Below are positions 8,210-9,872 of a stretch of 64,000 nt of DNA, in pieces (positions within the stretch are counted from its first letter, which is position 1; every line of letters begins with the position of its first letter). Under the pieces are notes generated by a model, which did no database searches, was not told the DNA's origin, and saw nothing but the letters and a program-made list of their open reading frames with translations. This stretch comes from Escherichia phage WPEC2: sequence record PV691511.1; one strand, 5' to 3'. The position numbers were made by a program, and so were the translations under genes.

Positions 8210-8470
8210 TTACTCCGCAATTTGAGCCATGAGATCACGCAGTTCGGTAAAACCGCCTACGTATGTTACCTCCCCGTTCACTTCAGATAGAATTTGTGGA
8301 AATGTGCGTGGAGGAACTCCGGTAAGATCAACAACTGTTTTAGTCATTGATTCTAAATCATAGTCTTGATCAAGACTTAAATATTCAAACTGTTTATTGC
8401 GCATGGTTAATAGTTGTTTTGACATTTCGCAAAATTGACAGTTAGGTTTACCAAAAATTACAAATTCCAT
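8210..8470 (-). CDS. glutaredoxin-like protein
   Basis: 86 aa, CQFC redox motif near N-terminus; next to nucleotide-metabolism genes. Confidence 0.7.
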   Translation of the reverse strand: MEFVIFGKPNCQFCEMSKQLLTMRNKQFEYLSLDQDYDLESMTKTVVDLTGVPPRTFPQILSEVNGEVTYVGGFTELRDLMAQIAE

Positions 8471-9312
8471 TACCTCTCCTTATTAAGTAATACTGCTAAA
8501 GACTGTTCAATACCTTTATTTAAATCTGATTTTGTAAGATAGTGACTGGTTACTAGTTGTGACTTCACCGGACGTGCTGCTGGAGCATTATAGGTTGAAG
8601 CTGATACCGCCGATATCTTAACAGGTTCTGGCATCTGTGTCAAGATCTTTTCCGCAAACTCCGCCCAAGAAATAAAATGGCTTCCTGCAAAATGGTAAGT
8701 CTTAACAGACCTTGACCAACCTGTTTTTAATACTTCAAAAATAGCTTCTGCTAAATCTGGAGCATATGTTGGACAAGAGAACTGATCAGCAACAATAATA
8801 AAATCACGTTGTCCATCATTATAGCGAGACAACATCGTTTTTAGAAAGTTATTTCCAAATTCGCTATATACTGAGGCTGTTCGAATAATATATGCATTTG
8901 GGTTAACTCCTCGCACCATTTTTTCACCAAGTTCTTTCGTATACCCATAATTGTTTATTGGGTTAGGTGTAGTATCTTCAAAAATAGGATGAGAATAATT
9001 AAAAATATAGTCTGTAGAAATATGCACAAAATCAATTTTAAGTTTGCTGCACACTGCCGCAATATTTGCAGGTCCATACGCATTAACAGCCAAAGCAGTA
9101 GCAAAATCATGTTCCGCTTTATCTACAGCCGTATAAGCAGCGCAGTTAATAACACCGTCTACATAATCTTCAACAATAGCGTTTCGCACAGCTTCAAAAT
9201 TTGTAATATCTACACGTTCTTTAGGATAAATTAAAGATACATTTGAAGGAACCACTTTACGTAAAGCTTGTCCCAGTTGTCCATTACCACCCAATACCAG
9301 ATATGTTAGCAT
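8470..9312 (-). CDS. rmlD: dTDP-4-dehydrorhamnose reductase homologue
   Basis: GGNGQLG Rossmann motif, STDYIF and YGYTKELGE catalytic segments matching RmlD. Confidence 0.8.
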   Translation of the reverse strand: MLTYLVLGGNGQLGQALRKVVPSNVSLIYPKERVDITNFEAVRNAIVEDYVDGVINCAAYTAVDKAEHDFATALAVNAYGPANIAAVCSKLKIDFVHISTDYIFNYSHPIFEDTTPNPINNYGYTKELGEKMVRGVNPNAYIIRTASVYSEFGNNFLKTMLSRYNDGQRDFIIVADQFSCPTYAPDLAEAIFEVLKTGWSRSVKTYHFAGSHFISWAEFAEKILTQMPEPVKISAVSASTYNAPAARPVKSQLVTSHYLTKSDLNKGIEQSLAVLLNKER

Positions 9313-9872
9313 ACACCCTCGCTACGTAACTGTTGAAAAGATTTAGCCATTGCATCTTTTGTTGATAAAATAGGTTTAAAACCTTCGTCAAAAATCATAT
9401 CGAAGCCCCAATCGATCCCTATGTCAGGATCATCCCAACGTAAACTTTGTTCACTAGAAGGGTCGTATGGAGTTGTGCATTTGTATTCAAAGATCGCATC
9501 CATACTCAAAACTATAAAACCATGTGCCAAACCAGGAGGAAGCCAAAACTGCGTATGGTGTCGTGCACGAAGAACAACACCGTCCCAAGCACCGTAAGTT
9601 GGACTATCTTTACGTAAATCTACAGCGAAATCCAATACTTCTCCACTTACACAACGAACAAGCTTACCTTGCGGGTTATTTGTTTGAAAGTGCATTCCTC
9701 GCAAAACACCGAAGTTTGATTTAGACATATTATCTTGAACGAAAGTTTGTTTACCAATGATATCTTCGTATTTTTGTTCATTGTATGTTTCTAAAAAGAA
9801 ACCACGATCATCTTTATAAACATCTGGTTTGATAATTACCGCACCTTCAATTTTTGTTTTTTCTACTTTCAT
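9306..9872 (-). CDS. rmlC: dTDP-4-dehydrorhamnose 3,5-epimerase homologue
   Basis: DDRGFFLE, RGMHFQ, GLAHGF motifs typical of RmlC cupin. Confidence 0.8.
   Translation of the reverse strand: MKVEKTKIEGAVIIKPDVYKDDRGFFLETYNEQKYEDIIGKQTFVQDNMSKSNFGVLRGMHFQTNNPQGKLVRCVSGEVLDFAVDLRKDSPTYGAWDGVVLRARHHTQFWLPPGLAHGFIVLSMDAIFEYKCTTPYDPSSEQSLRWDDPDIGIDWGFDMIFDEGFKPILSTKDAMAKSFQQLRSEGVC

Follow-up and report, generated by a model that had tools for sequence, protein, structure and literature searches.

The rmlC-rmlD pair of Escherichia phage WPEC2, a likely deletion remnant of a phage rmlBACD operon, probably encodes the last two steps of dTDP-L-rhamnose synthesis

Why does a strictly lytic coliphage keep a pathway for a sugar nucleotide in the midst of its genes for DNA precursors? 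Raised in print in 2020, this question returns with Escherichia phage WPEC2, in which only half of the pathway is left. We analysed a stretch of 64,000 nucleotides from this phage (PV691511.1; hereafter the window), in which two adjacent genes encode homologues of the enzymes that complete the synthesis of deoxythymidine diphosphate (dTDP)-L-rhamnose.

9306..9872, minus strand: rmlC, dTDP-4-dehydrorhamnose 3,5-epimerase (188 aa; TIGR01221, PF00908)
8470..9312, minus strand: rmlD, dTDP-4-dehydrorhamnose reductase (280 aa; TIGR01214, PF04321)

The pathway and its odd position among nucleotide-metabolism genes have already been published (PMC7552041, PMC8594841, PMC10269720). The pair described here is a half-deleted version of this known rml operon of phages. 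Phage ESCO37 is an earlier example of the variant, as its lack of RmlA and RmlB has been stated (PMC10269720). The new points are incremental and concern the mechanism of the deletion, the recurrent one-sided loss of rmlB and rmlA, the purifying selection that acts on rmlC and rmlD, the match to the gene content of E. coli hosts and the mobility of a glycosyltransferase (GT) cassette. On balance, we think it likely that RmlC and RmlD are functional and complete the synthesis of dTDP-L-rhamnose, that their genes are what is left of an ancestral rmlB-rmlA-rmlC-rmlD operon, and that the end product is what is selected.

An earlier note made from this DNA had called both proteins clear RmlC and RmlD homologues, and this description holds: both pass the equivalog cut-offs, are full-length and keep their catalytic residues. 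The start of rmlD lies on the stop of rmlC with a 7-nt overlap. RmlC matches PF00908 with an E value of 7.8e-67 (profile positions 1-167 of 168) and the TIGR01221 equivalog with 225.3 bits against a cut-off of 155.75 (profile positions 1-174 of 176). Among solved structures, bona fide RmlC enzymes come out on top (E about 7e-56), whereas the mono-epimerases NovW, EvaD and ChmJ reach only 1e-25 to 1e-29, which suggests that the phage protein is a double (3,5) epimerase. In Salmonella RmlC, H63 and D170 form the catalytic His-Asp dyad, Y133 is the tyrosine acid and K73 the substrate lysine. Alignment with this enzyme (1dzr) places H61, D173, Y130 and K70 of the phage protein at the respective positions. 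The amino-acid sequence of RmlC is 100% identical to that of the ESCO5, ESCO37 and Mt1B1_P17 proteins. RmlD matches PF04321 with an E value of 2.8e-73 and passes the TIGR01214 equivalog cut-off of 224.05 by a narrow margin, with 239.1 bits. Its top solved structures are RmlD from B. anthracis (3sc6, E 3e-44) and the C. acetobutylicum protein (1vl0). Aligned with these two, it shows the GxxGxxG dinucleotide fold (G8/G11/G14) and the Ser/Thr-Tyr-Lys triad, made up of T100 in an STDY motif and Y122-x-x-x-K126. The family matches of both proteins are far above chance level.

The modest RmlD score bears on which sugar is made. RmlD-like reductases are able to give either C4 epimer, and the same two enzymes might instead yield dTDP-6-deoxy-L-talose or another 6-deoxy-L-hexose. 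The C4 stereochemistry cannot be read from sequence, and such a product would fit a reductase that barely exceeds the TIGR01214 cut-off and falls far under the enterobacterial RmlD model NF007440 (118 bits, with 308 needed). However, the equivalog cut-off is cleared and the top solved-structure matches are all named RmlD, and we regard a sugar other than L-rhamnose as quite unlikely. Compared with the bacterial RmlABCD pathway (E. coli rfbBDAC; Salmonella RmlC, 1dzr; RmlD, 1kbz), the phage genes belong to the same enzyme families with conserved catalytic residues. Unlike their bacterial counterparts, they have no adjacent O-antigen or capsule genes, they sit among nucleotide-metabolism genes of a lytic phage, and half of the pathway of the window is left to the host.

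We performed a tblastn search of the window with RmlA and RmlB from ESCO5, and neither protein was found in the 64 kb; the only match was the expected weak cross-match of RmlB on RmlD, both being short-chain dehydrogenases. The same search returned no RmlA or RmlB in the complete 148-kb two-gene genome of iGC_PHA_EC001, which is 98.7% identical to the window over rmlCD. The pair thus occurs without RmlA and RmlB, as had been proposed, in both the window and a complete near-identical genome. A self-sufficient pathway of all four enzymes is not encoded there, and RmlA and RmlB genes do occur in phAPEC8, ESCO5, phi92 and other phages.

The window belongs to the genus Phapecoctavirus (Stephanstirmvirinae), and the region is 98-100% identical to many genomes of the genus, as are its RmlC and RmlD proteins to those of other members. 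Dozens of records already name the two genes dTDP-4-dehydrorhamnose epimerase and reductase. At the same locus, the order rmlB-rmlA-rmlC-rmlD is found in about 40 records besides those of ESCO5 and of phAPEC8, the type phage, as well as in the more distant phages phiWec179 and PsgM04F and in phi92 from the sister genus Justusliebigvirus. Since the same order occupies the same locus in distant phages and in a sister genus, the four-gene operon is ancestral in the subfamily. The surrounding order of nrdB, small open reading frames (ORFs), rml genes, glutaredoxin, lysozyme and phoH is common to Phapecoctavirus, the 'Wecvirus' phages and Justusliebigvirus. The window thus shares its locus and flanking genes with the rmlBACD operon of phAPEC8, ESCO5, ESCO13 and phi92. 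It differs in the lack of rmlB and rmlA, caused by an exact 1,876-bp deletion between ribosome-binding sites. By these comparisons, the two-gene state is derived, a deletion remnant of the rmlBACD operon.

Pairwise alignment of the window with ESCO5 shows this deletion as a single clean gap that runs from the rmlB ATG to the rmlC ATG.

9873..9884, minus strand: deletion junction, at the place that rmlB-rmlA (1,876 bp) occupy in four-gene relatives; a hybrid Shine-Dalgarno sequence lies between the stop of the upstream ORF and the start of rmlC, TAA-GGAGAGAAA-ATG(rmlC)

In four-gene phages, GGTAAGGAGAACTGATG precedes rmlB and GCGGAGAGAAAATG precedes rmlC, whereas the junction in the window and in 12 other two-gene phages reads GGTAAGGAGAGAAAATG. 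Because GGTAAGGAGAGAAAATG is a hybrid of the two parental sequences, the crossover is placed inside the GGAGA that both Shine-Dalgarno sequences have in common. As a consequence, rmlC sits behind the ribosome-binding site of rmlB, which looks functional. The rmlB and rmlA genes were thus removed by recombination between the 5-bp GGAGA cores before rmlB and rmlC. The GGAGA junction is identical in 13 of 14 two-gene sequences. The isolates ESCO37, ZCKP1, nepoznato, anhysbys, Mt1B1_P17 and WPEC1/4/6 have the junction and the two genes of the window, from which nothing substantial sets them apart; a 4-bp frameshift in a small upstream ORF is found in the window only.

Overall, rmlBA is absent in about 21 of the 64 Phapecoctavirus records. 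In a tree of rmlCD, the two-gene phages are not monophyletic: the two-gene phage ECML-183-2 lies beside the four-gene phage ESCO13, and the four-gene phage ESCO5 lies among two-gene phages. A single origin as the whole story of the two-gene state was rejected on account of this mixing. Non-monophyly together with an identical junction indicates that the deletion allele has spread by recombination, or that the four-gene allele has been re-acquired.

A recent capture of the genes from a host was also considered. The closest bacterial RmlC proteins, from Pectobacterium, Klebsiella and Serratia, are just 56-57% identical, and the intermediates at 60-87% identity lie on phage-sized contigs of 140-157 kb. 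Recent capture was rejected on these grounds; the rml genes have thus long resided in this phage group. A scan of IMG/VR with RmlC returned two loci only.

In phiWec179 and PsgM04F, RmlB and RmlA match the ESCO5 proteins at 94-98% identity, and RmlC and RmlD match those of the window at only 65-67%; for phiWec179 by itself, the values are 94-97% and 65-66%, respectively. This pattern places a mosaic boundary between rmlA and rmlC (at about position 2500 of the phiWec179 and PsgM04F loci), at the same boundary as the deletion, and the two halves of the pathway have thus been exchanged as separate modules.

Are the two remaining genes still of use? Several further lesions bear on this question. 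MirsaeidiM_Esher1 lacks rmlBA with a junction that differs from the common one. In DIJ07P2, about 810 bp are deleted internally, which cuts RmlB at about residue 306 and takes away residues 1-239 of RmlA. In Eryne, a Justusliebigvirus by similarity to phi92, an in-frame fusion of RmlB(1-310) to RmlA(159-290) has removed the nucleotide-binding half of RmlA; the fusion ORF (locus 1586-2896, 436 aa) is annotated only as 'nucleotide-sugar epimerase', and RmlC and RmlD of this phage are identical to the phi92 versions. Finally, the rmlB reading frame of KKP 3954 falls into two ORFs, possibly because of an error in sequencing. At least three further independent lesions are thus found besides the common deletion, and all of them are in rmlB or rmlA. 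The DIJ07P2 deletion and the Eryne fusion begin at nearly the same RmlB position (about 306 and 310), which hints at a shared deletion hotspot in rmlB.

On the other hand, neither rmlC nor rmlD is shortened or interrupted by a stop codon in any of the 28 sequences (27 loci and the window). The ratio of nonsynonymous to synonymous substitution rates (dN/dS, pooled pairwise Nei-Gojobori) is 0.038 for rmlC and 0.131 for rmlD in two-gene phages, 0.018 and 0.097, respectively, in four-gene phages, and 0.16 for each of rmlA and rmlB, although the underlying variation may partly predate the deletion, as the allele crossed backgrounds by recombination. By these values, rmlC and rmlD are under purifying selection. 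Half of the pathway is left and the gene immediately upstream is frameshifted in the window, which could be taken to mean that rmlC and rmlD became functionless with the loss of rmlBA and have merely not yet eroded. This view is disfavoured, and we consider it very improbable: all 14 two-gene copies are full-length, their dN/dS is as low as in four-gene phages, the independent lesions always fall in rmlB or rmlA and never in rmlC or rmlD, and the deletion has kept a ribosome-binding site at the right spacing.

The one-sided pattern of loss was compared with what E. coli can supply. DNA resembling K-12 rfbA (rfbA/rffH type) is present in every complete E. coli genome (5,426 of 5,426). The median genome has two copies, the second of which is presumably the common-antigen paralogue rffH. 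From knowledge of the wec and rfb clusters, we take the matching dehydratase, RffG or RfbB, to be equally universal. DNA resembling K-12 rfbC is found in 2,348 of the 5,426 genomes, about 43%, a lower bound at the sensitivity of nucleotide BLAST (blastn). The presence of a glucose-1-phosphate thymidylyltransferase gene in every complete genome supports the earlier proposal that the phage depends on its host for the substrate. This substrate, dTDP-4-keto-6-deoxy-D-glucose, would come from RffH/RffG of the common antigen pathway or from RfbA/RfbB. The first half of the operon would be dispensable because every host can deliver this intermediate, and many hosts cannot finish the pathway. The phage could thus shed the first half and would have to keep the second to reach the end product in any host. 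Retention of the second half argues that selection acts on the end product and that simply having the genes is not what counts. Repeated independent loss of rmlB and rmlA, with rmlC and rmlD never lost and the split matching the universality of the host genes, suggests that the phage has a need for the end product itself.

What would the phage do with dTDP-L-rhamnose? No glycosyltransferase gene was found in the 64-kb window. The earlier note had advised a look for one elsewhere in the genome, and the near-identical complete genome of iGC_PHA_EC001 does carry four consecutive glycosyltransferase genes at 87.4-90.5 kb, adjoining a primase/helicase gene. The cassette comprises two GT-B paralogues, a GT-A enzyme of 227 aa in which a DDD motif is invariant (GT3), and a protein of 187 aa (GT4). 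None of the four has a convincing hydrophobic or membrane segment, which makes a Gtr-like periplasmic modification of the O-antigen unlikely. GT3 is full-length in 134 phage records, essentially the RmlC-bearing set of Phapecoctavirus and Justusliebigvirus. The nucleotide sugar most likely feeds this conserved cassette of the phage's own; the candidate targets are a virion protein, a small metabolite, a host envelope precursor and DNA. With dTDP-L-rhamnose as donor, the four soluble enzymes would build a phage-specific glycoconjugate in the cytoplasm.

Virion glycosylation has reportedly been described by Freeman et al. 2023 in the cluster F mycobacteriophages Che8 and Rita. GT3 has distant homologues among mycobacteriophages: 327 Mycobacterium phage records match it at 25-28% identity over residues 26-155 (about 130 residues). 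One of them is Maravista (cluster F1), whose announcement (PMC11256854) cites Freeman et al. 2023 and connects such glycosyltransferases with glycosylation of the capsid. The GT3 similarity is, however, very weak and limited to the nucleotide-binding half of the GT-A fold, and in the present system, which differs in its Gram-negative host, glycosylated virion proteins are hypothetical.

Part of the cassette also occurs in temperate phages. A Serratia prophage (Serratia sp. M24T3 contig, 5589-7670) has GT4-GT3-GT2 in the same order, at 41%, 36% and 51% identity, placed in the late region between lysis and terminase genes, and GT3-GT2 is found in P22-like contigs as well (metagenome locus 7394-8969). 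Its recurrence in temperate enterobacterial (pro)phages marks the cassette as a mobile phage module in its own right, with a tie to rml that is one of co-occurrence. A tentative proposal, which we consider possible, is that the dTDP-L-rhamnose of Stephanstirmvirinae feeds this mobile soluble cassette, and that the cassette adds a glycan containing rhamnose to the phage particle or to some other product of the phage. If so, this would be, to our knowledge, the first phage-encoded donor-plus-transferase system of such a kind in a phage of a Gram-negative host, and the natural rmlBA deletions would show that the phage needs only those steps that the host cannot reliably provide. Natural mutants are at hand, as two-gene and four-gene phages are otherwise 98-99% identical.

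In iGC_PHA_EC001, a set of Ter-type genes lies near the cassette, past three small ORFs and an endolysin gene (loci 41846-47451 and 255-1731). By Pfam, it comprises TerD, a vWA-TerF-like protein, TelA, an SprT-like protein, a ComF-like phosphoribosyltransferase and a HAD hydrolase. To our eyes it resembles the Ter-associated 'nucleoside-like metabolite' gene neighbourhoods that Anantharaman, Iyer and Aravind are said to have described. These genes could form an alternative acceptor pathway for the glycosyltransferases.

Several points weigh against the reading in which the phage makes dTDP-L-rhamnose for its own cassette, beginning with the age of the variation behind the dN/dS values and the lower-bound nature of the rfbC count. 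As RmlD barely clears its equivalog cut-off, the choice of L-rhamnose over 6-deoxy-L-talose at C4 is our inference. The link between rml and cassette is a co-occurrence within one subfamily and is phylogenetically non-independent, and no rml genes were found in the 9-17 kb of contig around the prophage cassettes. AlphaFold models of GT3 (predicted local distance difference test score, pLDDT, 88) and GT1 (pLDDT 93.5) matched only generic GT-A folds (STIV A197, vaccinia H3, LH3, TarP, RmlT) and GT4-type GT-B folds (PglA, BshA, MshA, GtfC, SdgB). Such folds reveal neither donor nor acceptor, and they do not tell an enzyme that targets DNA from one that targets proteins or glycans. Lastly, on how these phages use rhamnose or whether they modify their DNA, the searchable literature offers hypotheses and no experiments.

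The position of the genes suggests other uses of the sugar. The earlier note had set the pair beside glutaredoxin, nrdAB and thyX, and ORFs, Pfam and the annotation of relatives locate all four neighbours accordingly.

8210..8470, minus strand: glutaredoxin gene, directly downstream of rmlD (PF00462, E 1.8e-09)
9882..10204, minus strand: small conserved ORF upstream of the rml genes, 108 aa in relatives and broken in the window
10703..11788, minus strand: nrdB, upstream of the rml genes (ORF and annotation of relatives)
11833..14073, minus strand: nrdA, upstream of the rml genes (ORF and annotation of relatives)
14850..15848, minus strand: thyX, ThyX-type thymidylate synthase, upstream of the rml genes (PF02511)

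T4 has glucosyl-hydroxymethylcytosine in its DNA, made by a hydroxymethylase and alpha- and beta-glucosyltransferases with host UDP (uridine diphosphate)-glucose, and is not known to encode a sugar-nucleotide pathway. By analogy with T4, Olsen et al. 2020 proposed a rhamnosylation of hydroxymethylated bases (PMC7552041), by which dTDP-L-rhamnose would be put on modified phage DNA to evade restriction or other DNA-targeting defences. As in T4, a glycosyltransferase set lies near replication genes, here those of primase/helicase and DNA polymerase, and the rml genes lie inside the nucleotide-metabolism block. GT3 also has a faint match to the TET-associated glycosyltransferase family PF20691 (E 1e-3, 19.5 bits, under the 27.5 cut-off) and a match to phrog_842 (beta-glucosyl-hydroxymethylcytosine (HMC) alpha-glucosyltransferase; E 7.6e-6). 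Unlike in T4, however, ThyX is the only thymidylate-synthase-like gene, and no ThyA-type hydroxymethylase of deoxycytidine or deoxyuridine monophosphate (dCMP/dUMP) and no TET/JBP protein was found in the annotation of the complete relative and in Pfam scans of 20 of its ORFs, mostly unannotated, a survey that is not exhaustive. The T4 DNA glucosyltransferases AGT and BGT were not returned by the fold searches with the GT1 and GT3 models. The phi92-like relatives, with the whole pathway, were moreover described by Maffei et al. as 'exceptionally susceptible' to restriction-modification despite their 'putative dTDP glycosylation machinery' (PMC8594841), a susceptibility that has since been restated (PMC10844046). 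A role in DNA glycosylation is unlikely on this evidence.

The enzymes could also act without any phage glycan. By draining the host branch-point intermediate from dTDP-4-acetamido-4,6-dideoxy-D-galactose (dTDP-Fuc4NAc), RmlC and RmlD would lower the synthesis, on infected cells, of enterobacterial common antigen, which is reported to be the main receptor for these phages. Alternatively, their end product could inhibit the host thymidylyltransferase by feedback and spare deoxythymidine triphosphate (dTTP) for replication; it is well established that dTDP-L-rhamnose inhibits RmlA by feedback. The two-gene state only consumes host intermediate, and the genes lie among nrdAB, thyX, glutaredoxin and a 5'-deoxynucleotidase-like gene. 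All tested Vequintavirinae and relatives, including a Justusliebigvirus, need wecB and thus the common antigen (PMC8594841). Yet Vequintavirinae proper are also reported to have the common antigen as receptor, and none of them is among the RmlC matches in the phage collection. Both a drain and a sparing of dTTP are contradicted by the ancestral and still commonest state, since RmlA and RmlB consume dTTP and raise the intermediate, which is the opposite of a drain. A change of surface glycans would also be slow within a lytic cycle. We therefore rate such a diversion of the host pool as improbable; the earlier statement that the sequence does not decide between it and a donor role still holds. 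The preferred reading remains that of a donor for a phage glycosyltransferase.

Some details of the neighbourhood were recorded. The start of the glutaredoxin gene and the stop of rmlD have one base in common, and the order of glutaredoxin after the rml genes is constant in all relatives, phi92 included. In a scan of positions 7400-12000, the sole terminator-like hairpin on the rml strand lies at 11825-11810, between nrdA and nrdB.

In the small upstream ORF of the window, a 4-bp deletion near position 10104, where GGAG is gone, leads to a stop after 44 codons. Twenty other loci, phi92 among them, can be aligned along the whole ORF; it is unbroken in every one, and the 4-nt gap occurs in the window alone. 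The WPEC4 assembly breaks at the same base, and the gap may thus be an assembly artefact. Over 9882-10208, this ORF is 92% identical in nucleotides to the phi92 locus (1584-1910), and the adjacent rml proteins are 54-71% identical between the genera; it is either an unusually conserved little gene or the product of recent exchange.

The WPEC1/4/6 records are 100% identical to the window over 8470-9872, and Mt1B1_P17 and ESCO37 are 99.2-99.3% identical to it over about 22 kb (3260-25000). These WPEC records (WPEC4 is PV682947.1) are 155-161 kb long, and relatives measure about 150 kb. In each of the three, a 2.5-kb query scatters to 17-20 places, and their gene order after rmlC is unlike that of all other genomes, which suggests that these assemblies are fragmented or mis-joined. 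Positions 1-3259 of the window are not collinear with the closest genomes, whose matches begin at 3260, and the first 1.3 kb match iGC_PHA_EC001 at about 129.4-130.6 kb in reverse orientation. This mismatch could stem from a rearrangement, from a genome permuted differently or from a join made in assembly.

Finally, the ORF at 4550-5059 of the window has no Pfam match, though it is labelled 'DNA methyltransferase' in iGC_PHA_EC001. Another gene of that phage with the same label, RAB56_00090 in the head-gene region (locus 43158-43637), matches the XkdF-like phage serine protease family PF14550 (E 1.4e-11), and methyltransferase labels in these phage records look unreliable.

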